A stretch of 64,000 nt of DNA from an uncultured Candidatus Saccharibacteria bacterium (GTDB lineage Bacteria; Patescibacteriota; Saccharimonadia; CAILAD01; GCA-016700035). A program made the position numbers and the translations under genes. This document shows, one piece after another, positions 44,128 through 60,380 of this stretch (position 1 is its first letter; the number at the start of each line of letters is the position of its first letter). Under the pieces are notes generated by a model. That model saw only the letters and a program-made list of their open reading frames with translations. It did not search any database and was not told the DNA's origin. The stretch spans positions 145,754 to 209,753 of the forward strand of contig CAZOVH010000001.1 in NCBI GenBank assembly GCA_964583675.1, written 5' to 3'.

Positions 44128-45087
44128 ATGTCACAACTTTCTCAATCTTTTTGGAAAAATAAAAAAGTTCTCGTAACGGGCGGTTCTGGCTTTCTCGGCT
44201 CGGCACTTGTTCGCCAGTTAGATCGGTTAAATGCAGAATTCGTTACTCCATCGCACGCTGATTATGATCTGGTCAGTGGCGATGCGGTGCGTAAAATGTA
44301 TGCGGATAATCCTGGAGTGGATATAGTTATTCATCTGGCTGCAAAAGTTGGCGGTATTGGTGCTAACCGCGAGCACCCAGGCTCATTTATGTACGATAAC
44401 CTTATGATGGGCACGCAGTTAATGCATGAAGCGTATCTTGCGAAGATCCCTAAATTTGTAGCACTTGGTACGGTTTGTGCATATCCAAAGCATACCCCAG
44501 TGCCGTTTAAAGAAGATGACCTTTGGGATGGCTATCCTGAAGAAACGAATGCACCCTATGGTCTCGCTAAAAAGATGATGCTTGTTCAAAGTCAGGGCTA
44601 TCGTGAAGAATATGGATTTAACTCAATCTTTCTTTTGCCTGTAAATCTTTATGGTCCCAATGATAATTTTGATCCGGCATCAAGCCATGTTATTCCGGCG
44701 CTCATCAAAAAGTGTGTAGATGCCGTAGAGAATAACGATAAAGAAATTGTGGTATGGGGAACTGGTAAGGCTTCTCGAGAGTTCTTATATGTAGATGATG
44801 CAGTTGAGGCTATATTGCTTGCTGCTGAGCGCTATAACAGTTCAGAGCCGGTCAATATTGGTTCCAGTTTTGAAATTACCATCAAAGACCTCATCGAAAT
44901 TATCGTGAAAGAAACTGGTTTTACGGGAAAAATTACTTGGGACACCACTAAGCCAGATGGACAGCCTCGGCGCAAGCTCGATGTGTCCCGTGCTAAGAAA
45001 GAATTTGGCTTCGAATCGCAAACAAGTTTTGAAGAAGGCCTACGTAAAACCATCGCCTGGTATCGAGAAAATCGCGTCAACCTGTAG
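44128..45087 (+). CDS. fcl: GDP-L-fucose synthase (GDP-4-keto-6-deoxy-D-mannose 3,5-epimerase/4-reductase)
   Basis: [16 protein letters not shown], the Y...K catalytic residues and PYGLAKKM follow the Fcl/WcaG pattern. The gmd gene sits in the same locus. Confidence 0.85.
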
Positions 45088-45103
45088 TATAATTATCTAC
45101 TAG

Positions 45104-45928
45104 ATGGAACACGTTGTAGTCATTCGTCCTAAGAAACGACTCGCAATCGACTGGAAGGAGCTCAAGGAATACCGCGAGCTCTTCTTCTACTTCGCTTGGC
45201 GTGATGTAAAGGTGCGCTACAAGCAAACCGCAATTGGTATTTTGTGGGCAATTTTGCAGCCATTTATTCAGATGGTGGTATTTACGCTGTTCTTCAATAA
45301 AGCTGTGGGTATAGAGACGGGCTCAGCCGTTCCTTATGCAATTTTTTCTTATACTGGCTTATTATTCTGGAACTATTTCTCGCAGGCTTTGCAGCGTTCG
45401 GCAAATAGCCTTGTAGATAATCAGGCTGTTGTAACAAAGGTGTATTTTCCGCGCATTATTCCACCAATTTCCTCCACGATTGTCTCGTTTATAGATTTTT
45501 TGTTTGCGTCGATTATTTTTATAGGCCTCATGATTTATTTTCAGTTTGTACCAACTCTCTTGGGTGTACTTCTAGTAATTCCAGCTATAATAGTGACCTT
45601 CCTAGCTGCTACTGGACCGGGCCTCTTCCTAGCTGCAGTTAACGTGAAATACCGTGACGTGAAGCAGGCATTGCCGTTTCTTATTCAACTAGGCCTGTTC
45701 CTTACGCCAGTTATCTATCCGGTTACAGCCATCCCCGAGCAGTACCAGTGGCTACTGTATTTAAACCCAATGACAGGCGTGATTAATGCAATGCGTGCAA
45801 GCCTACTTGGAGCTGGAGAAATTAACTGGGCCCTTACGGCGCTTTCGGTTGCGATGGCAGTTATTATGTTTATTGGTGGATTGTATTACTTCAAGGGTAG
45901 AGAAAAGGAATTTGCGGATATTATATGA
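45104..45928 (+). CDS. wzm: ABC-2 polysaccharide export permease (Wzm/TagG-like)
   Basis: A 6-TM ABC-2 permease lying upstream of, and coupled to, the Wzt-like ATPase gene. Confidence 0.75.
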   Translation: MEHVVVIRPKKRLAIDWKELKEYRELFFYFAWRDVKVRYKQTAIGILWAILQPFIQMVVFTLFFNKAVGIETGSAVPYAIFSYTGLLFWNYFSQALQRSANSLVDNQAVVTKVYFPRIIPPISSTIVSFIDFLFASIIFIGLMIYFQFVPTLLGVLLVIPAIIVTFLAATGPGLFLAAVNVKYRDVKQALPFLIQLGLFLTPVIYPVTAIPEQYQWLLYLNPMTGVINAMRASLLGAGEINWALTALSVAMAVIMFIGGLYYFKGREKEFADII

Positions 45929-57846: not shown

Positions 57847-59218
57847 GTTTATTACATACATCCGTAGTAATCCTGACTTAACCCTCCTTCAAGTCATGGT
57901 ATTGTCTTTGCCGTTTGAGCGCATACCGTCTTTAGATGTTGCATTCGTAACACTTAGGCCGAGTTTACTAATCGGGGGTATATTGATTTTCCGGGCGCTT
58001 TGGCTGCTTGGCAGGTTTCGTAAACTAGCAAAGTTGCCGCTCGAGGTATTGTTAATTGGGCTATTCATATTGTGGATAACATTACTTATCCCTGCCTCTA
58101 TAAGTCAGACCCGAGCTCTGCAGGTGGTAGTTTATACAAGTTTTACAGTTAGTGTTGCTCTAAGTATTTTCTATATTTGGCAGAAGATTAATTCTCAATC
58201 TAGGAGAAAAGTAATTTTGGCATTGTATGTAGCGGCTATTGTTACTTCAATCTTTGGGCTTTATCAGTATTTTGGTGACTTTTTTGGACTAGGGCCTAAC
58301 TTCACGGGACTTGCCGAAAGGTATAGCTGGAAGGTCTTTGGCTTTGCTAGAGTTCAATCGACGGGCTTAGAGCCTCTCTACTATGGTTCCTACTTATTAA
58401 TGCCTACACTCATTCTCATGAATGAGATTCTTTACAGAAAAGACACTATCCCGTATAGCGCAGCAGTATTGACTTTATTCGTGACGACGCTAGGTCTCAC
58501 TCTGTCGAGGGGTGCAATTTATGGCCTGATTGGTGCGACTTTAGTTACCTTTTTCTTGTCGGCGATCTTTAGGAAAAAACTCAAGCAAGGCAGATTTAAA
58601 AGAGTAGTTCTGGCAATTGTTATGGGCTTTCTGTTGTCATTGGCATGTGTCCAGCTCTTCAACCGTACGCCGCCAACCGAAGGGCCTACTGAGGGCAAGA
58701 AAGCCGCGGGTGCTTACGTGCAACAGCTTACAAACTCCGGAGTTGAAGGGGCTGGTGATGACCGAAGTCGTTTTAGGAGCAAGGCAATTAGTATGGCCAC
58801 CTCCGATATTAATGTTTTGATGTTTGGTATAGGGCCAGGGCAATTTGGTCCGTATATTCAAGGGACTAATGCTGAGGGGGGCTGGGTAATCGTAAATAAT
58901 CTTCCATTAGAAATTCTTTTGGAAACTGGTGTAATTGGATTTCTCATCATGCTAACTGTAATTATCCTAGTTGTTCGTCAGTCTCTTACTTTATTGTCAA
59001 AAGCTGATAGCTACGAGAGCTATCTTATCTTTGGCTTGCTTGCATATCTATTTTCTCAGTTCATTCAGGCACAAACATTTTCTACTCTTTATATTCTTCA
59101 CATTTGGAGTGCGATAGGAATCTTATTGGCTGTAAATTACTCCGCGAAAAGATCTATTCAGACTAGCAAGAGAAAGCGTGCACAAGGCAGAAAGCATGCA
59201 GCTACGACCAAGTCTTAG
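57827..59218 (+). CDS. O-antigen ligase/polymerase-like (Wzy_C) polytopic membrane protein
   Basis: About 11 TM segments, with the Wzy_C-type segment LTLSRGAIYGLIGATLV and a periplasmic loop. Confidence 0.55.
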   Translation: MRDKTHKFITYIRSNPDLTLLQVMVLSLPFERIPSLDVAFVTLRPSLLIGGILIFRALWLLGRFRKLAKLPLEVLLIGLFILWITLLIPASISQTRALQVVVYTSFTVSVALSIFYIWQKINSQSRRKVILALYVAAIVTSIFGLYQYFGDFFGLGPNFTGLAERYSWKVFGFARVQSTGLEPLYYGSYLLMPTLILMNEILYRKDTIPYSAAVLTLFVTTLGLTLSRGAIYGLIGATLVTFFLSAIFRKKLKQGRFKRVVLAIVMGFLLSLACVQLFNRTPPTEGPTEGKKAAGAYVQQLTNSGVEGAGDDRSRFRSKAISMATSDINVLMFGIGPGQFGPYIQGTNAEGGWVIVNNLPLEILLETGVIGFLIMLTVIILVVRQSLTLLSKADSYESYLIFGLLAYLFSQFIQAQTFSTLYILHIWSAIGILLAVNYSAKRSIQTSKRKRAQGRKHAATTKS

Positions 59219-60380
59219 AAAAATTAAAAGTATAGTTGGTCGCTATCCAGCAATTACGATAGTATTTGCGTGGCTAATAGTCTTGATTTTGCTACGTACT
59301 TATGTAGTAGCAGCGATTAGCCAGCCTGGTAATCTAGATTACAATCCGCCGGTCGTATCGACTATACAGGGTGCTGTGAAATGGGATGGGCACTATTATC
59401 TACAGATAATACGTCAGGGATACGATTTTTCTGGACCAACTGCTGTTTTCTATCCAATCTTCCCCCTTATTGTAGGACTACTCAGTAGACTTGGCTTAGG
59501 CATAGTTATTTCAGCGCAGATAGTGAATGCATTGGCATTAATTCTTGCCTCACAGGGGCTCTATTTGCTAACTATACTAGTTACAAAAAAACGCCAAATT
59601 GCCCTCCTAGCCGTTCTTGCTTGGCTAGCTTTTCCAGTAGCGCATTTCTTTATTGCCTTTTACACAGAGGCTCTTTTTTCTGCATTGGTAGTGTGGTCGC
59701 TTTATTTTCTTTTACGAAAAAAGTACATATGGGCAGGTGTTTTAGCTGGGTTTGCTACCGGCACACGGGGGGCTGGCGTAGTACTTGGCTTGGTGATTTT
59801 AATTCAGTATCTTGCCGATAAGGGTTGGTCCTGGAGGAAGATTGATTGGCAGATCTTGGCGGTTCCAATTTCATTTTTTGGCATCGCCGCATATTGGTTG
59901 TGGATTTACAGGGAGACGAAAATTTTACCTTGGGTTTTCTTTTCGGGGCTCTATGCTAAATTCTGGCCATACATGCGCTTTGAGTCGAATATCCTAAAAA
60001 CGCTCTACGTTGAGTTGTTATCGATGGTAACGCTGATTAATTCAACGAGCTGGATGGATGCTTGGTTGAGCGAGTGGTTTACGAAGTTGCACTTCTTTGT
60101 TGCGTGGTTGACGATTGTTTATAGTGCTTGGCTCGGTTGGGTTAAAAAGTTGCCACTGGCTTTGGTGTTGTATTCGGCGCTCACTGCACTAATGCTGATA
60201 TTAACCGGAAATTTTGTATCGCATTCCCGTTATATTCTGCCAGTTTTTCCGGTGTTCATCCTCATTGCAATGTGGCTCGATAAGCAGGCTGAGTGGGTGA
60301 GAACTCTATACTTTGTCGTATCTGCCATTGCACTTGGTGCCATGCTCACGCTATTTTCTAATGGCTATTGGGTTGGCTAA
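59196..60380 (+). CDS. GT-C fold membrane glycosyltransferase-like protein (ArnT/PMT/GT87-like)
   Basis: A polytopic ~11-TM protein with an N-terminal loop carrying acidic residues. The assignment rests on topology and locus context only. Confidence 0.45.
   Translation: MQLRPSLRKIKSIVGRYPAITIVFAWLIVLILLRTYVVAAISQPGNLDYNPPVVSTIQGAVKWDGHYYLQIIRQGYDFSGPTAVFYPIFPLIVGLLSRLGLGIVISAQIVNALALILASQGLYLLTILVTKKRQIALLAVLAWLAFPVAHFFIAFYTEALFSALVVWSLYFLLRKKYIWAGVLAGFATGTRGAGVVLGLVILIQYLADKGWSWRKIDWQILAVPISFFGIAAYWLWIYRETKILPWVFFSGLYAKFWPYMRFESNILKTLYVELLSMVTLINSTSWMDAWLSEWFTKLHFFVAWLTIVYSAWLGWVKKLPLALVLYSALTALMLILTGNFVSHSRYILPVFPVFILIAMWLDKQAEWVRTLYFVVSAIALGAMLTLFSNGYWVG

Follow-up and report, generated by a model that had tools for sequence, protein, structure and literature searches.

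What is made by a gene cluster that combines GDP-fucose synthesis, fucosyltransferases, methyl- and acetyltransferases and a Wzm/Wzt exporter, and which part of its product does the exporter recognise? The question is raised by a locus in a 64-kb stretch of DNA (hereafter the window) whose host, judging from the named homologues and from general knowledge of the phylum, is probably a monoderm Saccharibacterium, as expected from the original prediction of an organism without an outer membrane. Candidatus Saccharibacteria (Patescibacteria) are tiny episymbiotic bacteria. Analysis of the ORFs with Pfam and NCBIfam identified a 16-kb cluster of 17 tightly packed genes at positions 44128-60380, the majority of which overlap or lie no more than 20 nt apart: fcl, wzm, wzt, two FkbM methyltransferase genes, a GT10-like gene, a hexapeptide acetyltransferase gene, a GT11 gene, four GT2 and two GT4 genes, gmd, and the genes of a Wzy_C protein and a PIG-V-like GT-C protein (Table 1). 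All the genes named in the original prediction, including its six GT2/GT4 enzymes, were recovered. The same architecture was seen again in independent Saccharibacteria genomes and is syntenic in relatives, which rules out a chance arrangement; the related genomes carry record titles that mark them as MAGs of environmental origin (lakes, groundwater, marine biofilm). The reading that we favour, with some confidence, is that of a conserved Candidatus Saccharibacteria surface-glycan locus that follows an ABC-transporter-dependent route, in which a structure made by a variable gene cassette is read by the carbohydrate-binding domain (CBD) of Wzt.

Table 1. Features of the glycan locus and of its 5' neighbour, with positions in the window.
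Feature	Coordinates	Strand	Evidence and remarks
Secreted modular protein, 708 aa	41963..44089	+	Conserved neighbour 5' of the locus
fcl, GDP-L-fucose synthase (GDP-4-keto-6-deoxymannose 3,5-epimerase/4-reductase)	44128..45087	+	NCBIfam, PDB sequence matches
wzm, ABC-2 permease	45104..45928	+	PF01061 73.5 bits
wzt, ABC ATPase, 427 aa	45925..47208	+	NBD ~45925-46619; C-terminal CBD ~46690-47208
Hypervariable module of 3.4 kb, replaced en bloc between relatives	46620..49989	+	Wzt CBD, FkbM 1, GT10-like, acetyltransferase, FkbM 2
FkbM-family SAM-dependent methyltransferase 1	47201..47893	+	PF05050 72.5 bits; TIGR01444 74.4 bits; no TM segment
GT10-like GT-B fucosyltransferase, short 280-aa form	47897..48739	+	Family profile, fold
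Left-handed beta-helix (hexapeptide) O-acetyltransferase, cytoplasmic	48751..49308	+	PF00132/PF14602; no TM segment
FkbM-family methyltransferase 2	49313..49966	+	PF05050 42 bits; TIGR01444 60.6 bits
GT11 fucosyltransferase (alpha-1,2 type family)	49972..50808	+	PF01531 131 bits; HVRRGDY motif
GT2 glycosyltransferase a, EpsE/TuaG-like, soluble	50793..51755	+	PF00535 128 bits; NCBIfam; no TM segment
GT2 glycosyltransferase b	51739..52635	+	PF00535 53 bits; within second variable segment
GT4 glycosyltransferase a	52651..53862	+	PF00534 92 bits
gmd, GDP-mannose 4,6-dehydratase	53865..54824	-	TIGR01472 532 bits (cut-off 415); PF16363 488 bits
GT4 glycosyltransferase b	54871..56031	+	PF00534 98 bits
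GT2 glycosyltransferase c	56024..57001	+	PF00535 92 bits
GT2 glycosyltransferase d	56998..57846	+	PF00535 69 bits
Wzy_C-family polytopic membrane protein, Patescibacteria-specific 'NN' clade	57827..59218	+	PF04932 39 bits (cut-off 31.7); ~9 TM segments
PIG-V-like GT-C fold membrane glycosyltransferase	59178..60380	+	PF04188 43 bits (cut-off 22.4); at least 8 TM segments

The neighbour upstream of fcl has a signal/anchor helix (TM/signal segment at residues 13-40), a conserved N-domain of ~260 aa and three Ig-like repeats of ~145 aa, and the protein itself gave no match in Pfam, NCBIfam or PDB. An orthologue of 86% identity occupies the same position in CP064998, and the family comprises 3506 clusters at 50% identity; N_BRCA1_IG repeats are found in 13 of 41 homologues, and lectin modules are also carried.

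As originally proposed, the locus is a Wzm/Wzt ABC-transporter glycan locus and encodes its own source of GDP-fucose. The fcl product matches NCBIfam NF047922 over its full length (313 bits, under the 500-bit equivalog cut-off), and all 18 listed PDB sequence matches (E <= 1e-30) are GDP-L-fucose synthases, the best being 7ll6 (3e-71). The Cys, Tyr..Lys and His residues, which we take to correspond to the catalytic residues of the E. coli enzyme, are retained in a conserved motif of 14 residues and in SSHVIPAL. The divergently oriented gmd is 91-94% identical in relatives. Likewise, GT11 belongs to the conserved core (orthologues 49-73% identical in L003, L005, L007, L009, L090 and L091) and GT4a is 67-87% identical to its counterparts; the conservation of GT11, gmd and the GT4 genes among the relatives places fucose in the conserved part of the glycan, too. 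According to a hydropathy scan, the GT2, GT4, GT10-like and GT11 enzymes, the methyltransferases and the acetyltransferase have no TM segments, and thus the assembly of the glycan is placed in the cytoplasm.

Both fucosyltransferase assignments of the original prediction hold, that of GT11 solidly (Table 1) and that of the GT10-like protein at the level of family profile and fold. The latter scores 21.5 bits for PF00852, under the 23.9-bit cut-off, and among its 1336 homologues most of the 120 that were listed carry PF00852. The significant PDB matches of its family profile are all GT10 alpha-1,3-fucosyltransferases (2nzw, 5e-16; 9s6a; 7yro; 8d0o). Moreover, the six best Foldseek matches of its AF2 model (pLDDT 96.6) are chains of H. 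pylori FucT (the best being 2nzx, 1.7e-8), and a 28-residue segment aligns with a segment of H. pylori FucT.

With respect to export, the best NCBIfam match of wzm is the galactan export permease Wzm/RfbD; its product shows four hydrophobic stretches in the hydropathy scan, one of them 61 residues long, and is 94% identical to its CP064998 counterpart. The best PDB sequence match of Wzt is the full-length A. aeolicus Wzt (8dku, 5e-66, query residues 52-374). Its C-terminal extension of ~170 aa, which had been likened to the recognition domain of ABC-dependent O-antigen systems, scores 22 bits for Pfam Wzt_C, under the 30.4-bit cut-off, and the AF2 model of residues 245-427 is a beta-sandwich (pLDDT 90.5) whose best 15 Foldseek matches in PDB are without exception Wzt CBDs (8dku, 2r5o, 5hno, 6o14, 8dky; E 5e-5 to 1e-3), including the A. 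aeolicus CBD with bound 3-O-methyl-mannose (8dky) and the E. coli O9a CBD (2r5o). The similarity to the solved CBDs is moderate (TM 0.5-0.66, 14-19% identity), so that the binding specificity is not readable from the model. The A. aeolicus CBD specifically binds a methyl cap, and the CBD is required for export of the capped O antigen (PMC9445017).

Comparison with relatives revealed that the CBD has been swapped between close relatives jointly with the FkbM-GT10-acetyltransferase-FkbM cassette, the two forming a single unit of exchange. Using blastn, collinearity with CP064998 stops at 46619 and restarts at 49990, at the start of GT11, and that with JAXLZV01 stops at 46583 and restarts at 50403, inside GT11. 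Within wzt, the GC content falls from 0.434 in the NBD to 0.351 in the CBD at the junction. Against L005 and L003, which carry other cassettes, the NBD is 90 and 88% identical and the CBD 29 and 30%; against L090, L091 and L092 the values are 83, 80 and 85% for the NBD and 49, 42 and 43% for the CBD, and there the cassette genes are 56-69% identical and in identical order. This four-gene cassette accompanies each of the three closest CBD homologues that were found. FkbM methyltransferase 1 starts 8 nt before the wzt stop and is a distinct paralogue of methyltransferase 2 (22% identical in pairwise comparison), and the best NCBIfam matches of the acetyltransferase are maltose O-acetyltransferase, WcaF and WbbJ. 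The sharing of the cassette by the nearest CBDs and the joint replacement of both support a terminal signal that would be made by the cassette and read by the Wzt CBD; methylated or acetylated fucose is a possible form of it. The original idea of a CBD-read terminal modification is thus strengthened by the co-exchange, while its methyl nature, its terminal place and its control of chain length are features that we infer.

Alternatively, the FkbM, GT10-like and acetyltransferase enzymes could decorate the polymer along its length with O-methyl groups, O-acetyl groups and side-chain fucose, with the CBD recognising a decorated repeat or tethering the polymer and chain length not being set by a terminal modification. 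Such internal decoration, which we regard as unlikely, would fit the lack of a WbdD-like coiled-coil ruler or kinase in the locus (Pfam, NCBIfam) and of a terminator domain or methyltransferase fused to a polymerising glycosyltransferase there, as well as the presence of two divergent methyltransferases, an acetyltransferase and a glycosyltransferase, which exceed the needs of a simple cap. Additionally, a second variable segment, non-collinear with CP064998 from 51110 to 52687, contains GT2b (47% identical match in L007; none in L003, L005 or L009); its distance from wzt indicates that serotype-like variation is not confined to the chain end. However, the replaced module begins exactly at the NBD/CBD junction and comprises nothing beyond the CBD and the four modification genes, and the solved CBDs matched by the model all bind non-reducing terminal structures (PMC9445017). 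Moreover, the element of the variable region that changes least is a methyltransferase gene directly 3' of wzt, which, although of differing family, is present in all six relatives whose flank was read.

The 3' end of the locus raises the question of whether all of its genes serve one pathway. The Wzy_C protein had been taken for an O-antigen ligase, and this reading is weakened: it has an invariant N357/N358 where E. coli WaaL has H338/N339, its family profile matched no solved PDB structure by sequence, and wzm/wzt lie within 10 kb in only 5 of 80 NN-type Wzy_C loci. For these reasons it is not classifiable as a WaaL-type ligase, and ligase, oligosaccharyltransferase and polymerase are all candidate functions. 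Its 181 relatives in species-representative genomes are mostly titled Patescibacteria, and the NN-type clade is present in 79 of 80 Patescibacteria loci. The GT-C gene begins 41 nt before the Wzy_C gene ends and has an orthologue (61% identity) at the corresponding place in L007; in other Patescibacteria its slot is filled by PMT_2, DUF2079 or a second Wzy_C. As the NN clade usually occurs without wzm/wzt nearby, the Wzy_C protein may belong to a separate module, and the 3' genes may serve another pathway.

Two pathways would then stand side by side: fcl to GT4a (44128-53862) would make an ABC-exported chain that an LCP enzyme, encoded at another site, links to peptidoglycan, and GT4b to GT-C (54871-60380) would build, polymerise or transfer a second oligosaccharide outside the membrane. 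This arrangement, to which we give a low probability, is consistent with a phylum-wide module, in which the NN-type Wzy_C is preceded by a GT4 or GT2 gene in 50 of 65 loci and followed in 30 of 67 by a second Wzy_C or in about 15 of 67 by a GT-C, and with the divergent gmd that divides the two halves. In the lactococcal Rha-CWPS, an ABC-exported rhamnan is likewise accompanied by a second chain, added by a polymerase and GT-C transferases (PMC10821137). Against it, neither a Wzx-type flippase nor a TM-bearing polyprenyl-phosphate sugar synthase was found in the locus (Pfam, hydropathy scan), the halves stay together in unchanged order in every Saccharimonadia relative examined, and gmd, the supplier of the 5' fucosyltransferases, sits between them.

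In H. pylori, a pair of GT11 and GT10 enzymes makes Lewis antigens. The predicted Lewis/H-antigen-like mimicry of an animal host, for which the co-occurrence of both fucosyltransferase types with GDP-fucose synthesis and a weak Glyco_transf_7C match of GT2d (Pfam, E 7e-4) could speak, is very improbable, given that enzymes building type-1 or type-2 LacNAc were not identified, that Lewis antigens are without methylation or acetylation, that the acceptor domain of the short GT10-like protein is reduced, that the related genomes are titled as environmental MAGs, and that cultivated Saccharibacteria are known from bacterial hosts (PMC11623550).

In the pathway that we favour, that of a cassette-made structure read by Wzt, Gmd and Fcl would provide GDP-L-fucose, and the soluble GT2, GT4 and GT11 enzymes would build a fucose-containing chain in the cytoplasm, presumably on a polyprenyl-phosphate carrier. 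No initiating phosphoglycosyltransferase (PF00953 or PF02397) was found in any ORF across the window, and this enzyme would be encoded outside it. The strain-variable cassette, with its acetyl-CoA-type O-acetyltransferase, would then place a specific structure on the chain, possibly a terminal fucosyl residue bearing O-methyl and/or O-acetyl groups, and, by analogy with capped O-antigen systems, recognition of this structure by the Wzt CBD would license export via Wzm/Wzt. The Wzy_C-family protein and the GT-C enzyme would then act on the glycan outside the membrane, either processing it or transferring it to an acceptor.

The component parts of this system are already well known. The two-pathway arrangement has a parallel in lactococci and streptococci, whose cell-wall polysaccharides are dual-chain. 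For the favoured route, precedents are the S-layer glycan of G. stearothermophilus, with Wzm/Wzt, a 2-O-methyl cap and the Wzy_C transferase WsaB (PMC2943079), and the O-polysaccharide operon of R. tropici, whose glycan contains fucose and acetyl groups and whose wzt carries a CBM (PMC12595478).

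The region from 44128 to 60380 contains 17 closely packed ORFs, 16 of them on the plus strand and gmd alone on the minus strand. The original prediction had placed in this locus six GT2/GT4 glycosyltransferases, two FkbM methyltransferases, one acetyltransferase and a gmd gene on the opposite strand, and this gene list was found to be right throughout.

Genes of the fucose-glycan locus, with their coordinates in the window, strand and source of the assignment
Gene or product	Position	Strand	Assignment
fcl	44128-45087	+	Pfam/NCBIfam
wzm	45104-45928	+	Pfam/NCBIfam
wzt	45925-47208	+	Pfam/NCBIfam
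FkbM methyltransferase 1	47201-47893	+	Pfam/NCBIfam
GT10-like	47897-48739	+	Pfam/NCBIfam
Hexapeptide acetyltransferase	48751-49308	+	Pfam/NCBIfam
FkbM methyltransferase 2	49313-49966	+	Pfam/NCBIfam
GT11	49972-50808	+	Pfam/NCBIfam
GT2 a	50793-51755	+	Pfam/NCBIfam
GT2 b	51739-52635	+	Pfam/NCBIfam
GT4 a	52651-53862	+	Pfam/NCBIfam
gmd	53865-54824	-	Pfam/NCBIfam
GT4 b	54871-56031	+	Pfam/NCBIfam
GT2 c	56024-57001	+	Pfam/NCBIfam
GT2 d	56998-57846	+	Pfam/NCBIfam
Wzy_C protein	57827-59218	+	Pfam/NCBIfam
PIG-V-like GT-C	59178-60380	+	Pfam/NCBIfam

Fcl scored 313 bits with the NCBIfam equivalog model, below the 500-bit cut-off. All 18 of the PDB sequence matches listed were GDP-L-fucose synthases, and in the alignment with 7ll6 the Cys in LGTVCAYP, the Tyr and Lys in PYGLAK and the His in SSHVIPAL are all kept; we take these to be the catalytic residues of E. 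coli GMER. The protein thus has the features of a GDP-L-fucose synthase, namely an SDR with the epimerase Cys/His pair and the reductase Ser/Thr-Tyr-Lys triad. At the other end of the locus, the PIG-V-like product matched PF04188 with 43 bits (cut-off 22.4 bits), together with a weak PMT_2 match, and has at least 8 TM segments; on the basis of the family-model match, it is a predicted polytopic GT-C glycosyltransferase. A promoter and terminator consensus scan of 41300-61000 gave counts no higher than those of shuffled controls and is therefore uninformative on the operon limits. An Rfam scan of the window detected one tRNA only, and none in the locus.

The best PDB matches of Wzt were to Aquifex aeolicus Wzt (8dku, 5e-66; 6amx and 6m96), followed by TarH/TagH, and the full-length protein aligns with the full-length A. 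aeolicus protein as far as query residue 374. A PF01061 permease gene lies directly upstream with a 4-nt overlap, and the two genes encode a Wzt/TagH-type ABC nucleotide-binding part (NBD) and its paired ABC-2 Wzm permease. The tail of Wzt gave a weak Pfam Wzt_C match (22 bits, below the 30.4 cut-off). Because the isolated C-domain retrieved chance-level matches only from the PDB sequences, a fold comparison was required. An AlphaFold2 model of residues 245-427, built with 83 homologues, has a pLDDT of 90.5 and forms a beta-sandwich of about 10 strands. The best 15 Foldseek matches in the PDB were all Wzt carbohydrate-binding domains (CBDs), with E values of 5e-5 to 1e-3 and TM values of 0.5-0.66, and they included those of A. 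aeolicus (8dku, 6o14 and 8dky, the last with bound 3-O-methyl-mannose), E. coli O9a (2r5o) and Raoultella O12 (5hno); identity to the solved CBDs is 14-19%. The carbohydrate-binding beta-sandwich foreseen for the Wzt extension is therefore borne out by the model, and Wzt is best described as an NBD fused to a predicted C-terminal beta-sandwich (jelly-roll) CBD. The CBD of A. aeolicus distinguishes the 3-O-methyl cap, which it binds, from the unmodified sugar, which it does not bind, and the CBD is required for the export of capped O antigens (PMC9445017).

The four genes that follow wzt encode FkbM methyltransferase 1, the GT10-like protein, the acetyltransferase and FkbM methyltransferase 2, and are referred to as the cassette. 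The GT10-like protein scored 21.5 bits with PF00852, just short of the 23.9-bit cut-off; 1336 homologues were found, and PF00852 is present in most of the 120 listed. When a profile of 73 homologues was compared with the PDB, GT10 alpha-1,3-fucosyltransferases only were retrieved (Helicobacter pylori FucT, 2nzw, 5e-16), apart from one chance-level match (E 0.97), and the six best Foldseek matches of the AlphaFold2 model (pLDDT 96.6) were H. pylori FucT chains. All 73 homologues keep E181, E191, K192 and D195, which line up with the H. pylori segment ENTQGYGYVTEKIIDAY, and the family shows no variation in the nucleotide-sugar motif ..ENG...YYFTEKLID... The protein thus has the GT-B fold and the conserved C-terminal nucleotide-sugar motif (..ENs....Y.TEK..) of CAZy GT10; it is short (280 aa), and its N-terminal acceptor domain is much reduced. 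We regard it as a predicted fucosyltransferase and assign it no linkage specificity. GT11 matched PF01531 with 131 bits (cut-off 23.9 bits) over profile positions 35-287 of 298 and carries HVRRGDY, which fits the HxRRGDY motif; among PDB sequences it had no solved homologue. Both fucosyltransferase family assignments made from the sequence were thus upheld, that of GT10 at the level of family profile and fold, its own Pfam score being below the cut-off.

Each of the two FkbM methyltransferases (230 and 217 aa) consists of a single domain. Chain terminators of the WbdD type link a methyltransferase, with or without a kinase, to a polymerase-binding coiled-coil ruler; a WbdD-like ruler, kinase or extended C-terminal region was not detected in the locus, and neither methyltransferase is joined to a coiled-coil ruler. 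NoeI is presumably also a member of the FkbM family. Nod factors carry a fucose that this enzyme methylates (PMC4881576).

The locus is syntenic in CP064998.1 (a 916-kb genome), JAXLZV010000001.1 (Ca. Saccharibacteria), JADZBC010000009.1 and a JGI contig, with the common order of secreted protein, fcl-like epimerase, wzm, wzt, methyltransferase(s), glycosyltransferases, GT11, GT2, GT2, GT4, gmd on the minus strand, more glycosyltransferases, Wzy_C and GT-C. Relative to CP064998, the flanks and the core are 73-94% identical (Wzm 94%, Wzt NBD 90%, gmd 94%), whereas the Wzt CBD is just 29% identical, and FkbM1, GT10, the acetyltransferase and FkbM2 are replaced by three unrelated methyltransferase-like genes. 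DNA collinearity with CP064998 stops at 46619, the end of the NBD, and restarts at 49990, the start of GT11; with JAXLZV01, it stops at 46583 and restarts at 50403, inside GT11. Conversely, the three Wzt proteins with the nearest CBDs (42-49%) have less similar NBDs (80-85%), and their loci share the order wzt-FkbM-GT10-hexapeptide acetyltransferase-FkbM-GT11, one of the contigs ending after the acetyltransferase gene, and the second FkbM and GT11 being seen in the other two. Within wzt, the GC content falls from 0.434 in the NBD to 0.351 in the CBD (window mean 0.444), and it is 0.37-0.39 in three of the four cassette genes and 0.44 in FkbM1. The breaks in collinearity, the contrast between CBD and NBD identity, the common cassette and the drop in GC content together show that the CBD and the four modification genes form a 3.4-kb module (46620-49989) that is swapped as one unit. 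A second non-collinear segment, 51110-52687, covers the C-terminal part of GT2 a and all of GT2 b, and differs from CP064998 independently of the CBD cassette.

The best-supported reading of the locus is a capped-glycan ABC pathway. Since the glycosyltransferases (other than the GT-C protein), the methyltransferases and the acetyltransferase have no TM segments, glycan assembly would be cytoplasmic. A fucose-containing chain would be assembled on a lipid carrier, the cassette enzymes would place a specific structure on it, and recognition of this structure by the cognate CBD would license export. As the cassette has its own glycosyltransferase, one possible signal is a fucosyl residue that the GT10-like enzyme would attach at the terminus and that would then receive O-methyl and/or O-acetyl groups. 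The joint replacement of CBD and cassette lends indirect support to the proposal that the CBD binds a non-reducing terminal modification and is itself needed for export; the terminal position of the modification, its chemistry and any chain-length control are features that we infer. An initiating phosphoglycosyltransferase (PF00953 or PF02397) was not found among the approximately 60 plausible ORFs scanned in the 64-kb window, and initiation must therefore lie with a gene elsewhere, as is the case for many ABC-dependent O-antigen loci.

The Wzy_C protein, which had been read as an O-antigen-ligase-like enzyme, matched the Pfam Wzy_C domain with 39 bits (cut-off 31.7 bits) and has about 9 TM segments. 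Its family profile retrieved no PDB sequence at E <= 10, and aligning the family with E. coli WaaL by hhalign gave no significant result (probability 0.24, E 0.26). For this reason, the His/Asn correspondence rests on the Pfam profile coordinates and on the local motif: His338 of WaaL and N357 of the window protein both lie 16 residues ahead of profile position 146, in the segments HNEIIEAGSLKG and NNLPLEILLETG, respectively. H338 is presumably important for the function of E. coli WaaL. The conserved His of the H-N-x9-G motif of WaaL/PglL-type enzymes is thus replaced by Asn357 in the window protein, and N357 and N358 are invariant in 61 of 61 family members. R228 and R313 are also invariant in the family, and the same non-significant hhalign alignment sets R228 opposite WaaL R215 and R313 within one residue of R288. 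The protein is not classifiable among the WaaL-type ligases. Possible roles are that of a transferase using another catalytic base and that of a polymerase-like partner of the enzyme encoded downstream.

Relatives of the Wzy_C protein were found by scanning genome contigs with the family alignment, a scan with the single protein having given no match. This yielded 181 relatives from species-representative genomes; 80 loci were kept, the majority with titles that name Patescibacteria or a candidate phylum within it. We named this group the NN clade after its Asn-Asn pair; a second Patescibacteria clade, HN, carries YPHN...E.G..G. Genes for wzm/wzt lie within 10 kb of the NN-clade gene in 5 of the 80 loci, and gmd is nearby in 15 of 80. 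The upstream neighbour is a GT4 gene in 42 of 65 cases and a GT2 gene in 8 of 65; the downstream neighbour is a second Wzy_C gene in 30 of 67 and a GT-C gene (PMT_2, DUF2079 or PIG-V) in about 15 of 67. A motif scan detected the canonical PHN motif in 17 downstream neighbours, and the tandem paralogues elsewhere in Patescibacteria keep YPHN. The NN and HN genes are often arranged in tandem, NN first (as in two relatives' loci, L040:11232-12488 and L067:11224-12480), and in Saccharimonadia the second position is taken by a GT-C gene. On this distribution, the window protein is a predicted glycan-processing membrane enzyme found phylum-wide.

By analogy with the lactococcal type of cell-wall polysaccharide (PMC10821137), it is possible that GT-C enzymes link the ABC-exported chain, once outside the membrane, to a unit of separate synthesis, but the locus contains neither a flippase nor a polyprenyl-phosphate sugar synthase. 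A joint reading, which we consider rather unlikely, would make the locus the Saccharibacteria form of a Patescibacteria-wide surface glycosylation built on the undescribed NN clade: the NN protein and the downstream HN Wzy_C or GT-C enzyme would polymerise the glycan or transfer it to the wall or to surface proteins, such as pilins or the adjacent modular secreted protein, and the CBD-plus-cap cassette of Saccharimonadia would give a strain-specific terminal epitope. If this were true, each strain's own terminal epitope could govern recognition by host bacteria or phages. The suggested mimicry of Lewis/H antigens is rejected, as neither a supporting gene nor the ecological context speaks for it.

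The proteins of the window occur, identical, on NCBI and Logan metagenome contigs, and the named homologues of Wzt and Wzy_C belong to Candidatus Saccharibacteria/Saccharimonadia and other Patescibacteria. The Saccharibacteria lineage is monoderm. Positions 1-5170 correspond to the chromosomal origin region, with dnaN (132-1229) and dnaA (1567-3045) on the minus strand, rnpA (3283-3618), yidC (3874-4698) and jag/KhpB (4637-5170), and the cumulative GC skew climbs over the whole window. The following genes (5167-10514) encode a VanW/PG_binding_4 protein, an LGFP-repeat NlpC/P60 hydrolase, a GT4 enzyme and a GH5/GH10-like hydrolase, which are cell-wall genes typical of monoderms; the last three adjoin the glycan locus in other Saccharibacteria (the relatives' loci L008 and L009). 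A large serine recombinase gene on the minus strand (10659-12158) overlaps a tRNA gene (10626-10697) with its 3' end, and the region from about 12200 to 27000 contains, besides many hypothetical ORFs, genes for a SHOCT protein, an Ltp-type surface lipoprotein and a PIF1-like helicase (24992-26527); together, 10626-12158 and this region may be an integrated element. In JADZBC010000009.1, a block of LGFP/CHAP hydrolase, GT4, glycoside hydrolase and recombinase genes directly follows the glycan locus; its counterpart in the window, 7036-12158, is about 30 kb away from it.

Closer to the locus, the block 38652-41970 encodes an LRAT/NlpC-like acyltransferase with DUF308 TM repeats (minus strand), a DUF998 membrane protein, a LiaF-like small membrane protein and a Gmad2-like Ig-domain protein, and it is conserved and syntenic with the glycan locus in both of the relatives whose far-upstream flank was read. 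Directly upstream of fcl, 41963-44089 on the plus strand encodes a secreted protein of 708 aa, with a conserved N-domain of about 260 aa (an invariant Glu in LQKEQSL and a conserved Cys) and three repeats of about 145 aa. A large secreted protein is encoded at this place in all four relatives with the upstream flank read. The protein has no Pfam or PDB match and belongs to a family of 3506 50%-identity clusters; in its homologues, this N-domain is joined either to N_BRCA1_IG Ig-like repeats or to lectin modules (Ricin B, B_lectin, Tectonin, F5/8 type C). The idea that it is an S-layer protein and a glycosylation target was unsupported, its homologues being modular Ig-repeat/lectin proteins, and we keep it as a candidate target by position only. 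Downstream, the GT-C gene is separated from the DUF2177/malic enzyme genes by a ferric-reductase-like membrane flavoprotein gene (60400-61776, with Ferric_reduct, FAD and NAD domains) and a MarR regulator gene (61773-62312), both of which are absent from this place in the JGI contig; in two other Patescibacteria loci, a ferric-reductase-like gene directly follows the Wzy_C gene.

Because Saccharibacteria live attached to other bacteria, the glycan at their outer surface is likely to help determine how they contact their hosts, how sensitive they are to phages and, in oral species, how they are recognised by the immune system. A 2024 preprint on TM7x pili calls Saccharibacteria glycosylation unexplored (PMC11623550), and our full-text literature search found no paper tying Saccharibacteria to Wzt or to an O-antigen ligase. 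The locus offers a concrete, conserved genetic handle, with a constant core (fucose synthesis, GT11, GT4/GT2, Wzm and the Wzt NBD) and an exchangeable module of 3.4 kb in which a sensing domain is coupled to the enzymes presumably making its ligand, a natural experiment on CBD specificity. Because the capped-glycan ABC mechanism is already known, the advance is in scope and not in principle. The linked exchange of CBD and cassette and the Asn-for-His Wzy_C clade are worth following, the latter being the part most likely to hold new biochemistry.

The capped-glycan pathway has its closest counterparts in the capped O-antigen exporters (E. coli O8/O9a with WbdD, A. aeolicus WzmWzt and Raoultella/Klebsiella O12), which likewise have a Wzm/Wzt pair, cytoplasmic glycosyltransferases and a methyltransferase gene coupled to wzt, whose CBDs are exactly the nearest structures of the Wzt tail, and in which the CBD varies between strains along with the modification genes. 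Unlike in those systems, the bacterium itself is presumed to be without an outer membrane, lipid A-core or WaaL-type ligation, the locus is without a WbdD-like ruler or kinase, the variable module has its own glycosyltransferase and acetyltransferase, and the CBD, only 14-19% identical to the solved ones, falls below the Pfam Wzt_C cut-off. Among monoderms, the slg cluster of Geobacillus stearothermophilus NRS 2004/3a encodes Wzm/Wzt, the 2-O-methyl cap enzyme WsaE and the Wzy_C oligosaccharyltransferase WsaB, and adjoins an S-layer gene (PMC2943079). Like that cluster, the present locus is predicted to make an ABC-dependent 6-deoxyhexose glycan with a methyl cap, and both have overlapping wzm-wzt-methyltransferase genes, a membrane protein of the Wzy_C family and an adjoining gene for a secreted protein. 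However, the methyltransferase of the slg cluster is a domain of a polymerising rhamnosyltransferase, whereas FkbM is free-standing here; the slg cluster carries its own initiating WbaP homologue, WsaP; and the present locus has Asn for the conserved His of Wzy_C and an upstream protein that resembles a modular Ig-repeat/lectin-family protein, not an S-layer protein.

The O-polysaccharide operon of Rhizobium tropici CIAT 899 combines wzm, a CBM-bearing wzt, gmd, fcl and six glycosyltransferase genes, and its product has an O-acetylated 6-deoxyhexose repeat; the possible addition of a terminal residue by one glycosyltransferase was also raised (PMC12595478). As in that operon, GDP-fucose genes and a CBM-bearing Wzt stand together in the present locus for a predicted fucose-containing, acetylated, ABC-exported glycan, but R. 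tropici is a diderm with a lipid A-core acceptor, and WrtF, the fucosyltransferase characterised there, adopts a GT-A fold and falls outside both GT10 and GT11. The rhamnose-rich cell-wall polysaccharides of lactococci and streptococci, also monoderms, combine export of the backbone by the RgpCD ABC transporter with extracytoplasmic GT-C and polymerase steps carried out by polytopic membrane enzymes of the same locus (PMC10821137). Their loci encode a Wzx flippase as well as a polyprenyl-phosphate sugar synthase of the GacI/WpsA type, and they depend on LCP ligases, whereas none of these was seen in the present locus or in the window. Compared with the capped O-antigen exporters, the Geobacillus cluster and the R. 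tropici operon, the locus is set apart by its host lineage, its free-standing FkbM methyltransferases, the glycosyltransferase and acetyltransferase within the variable module, and its unusual Wzy_C clade.
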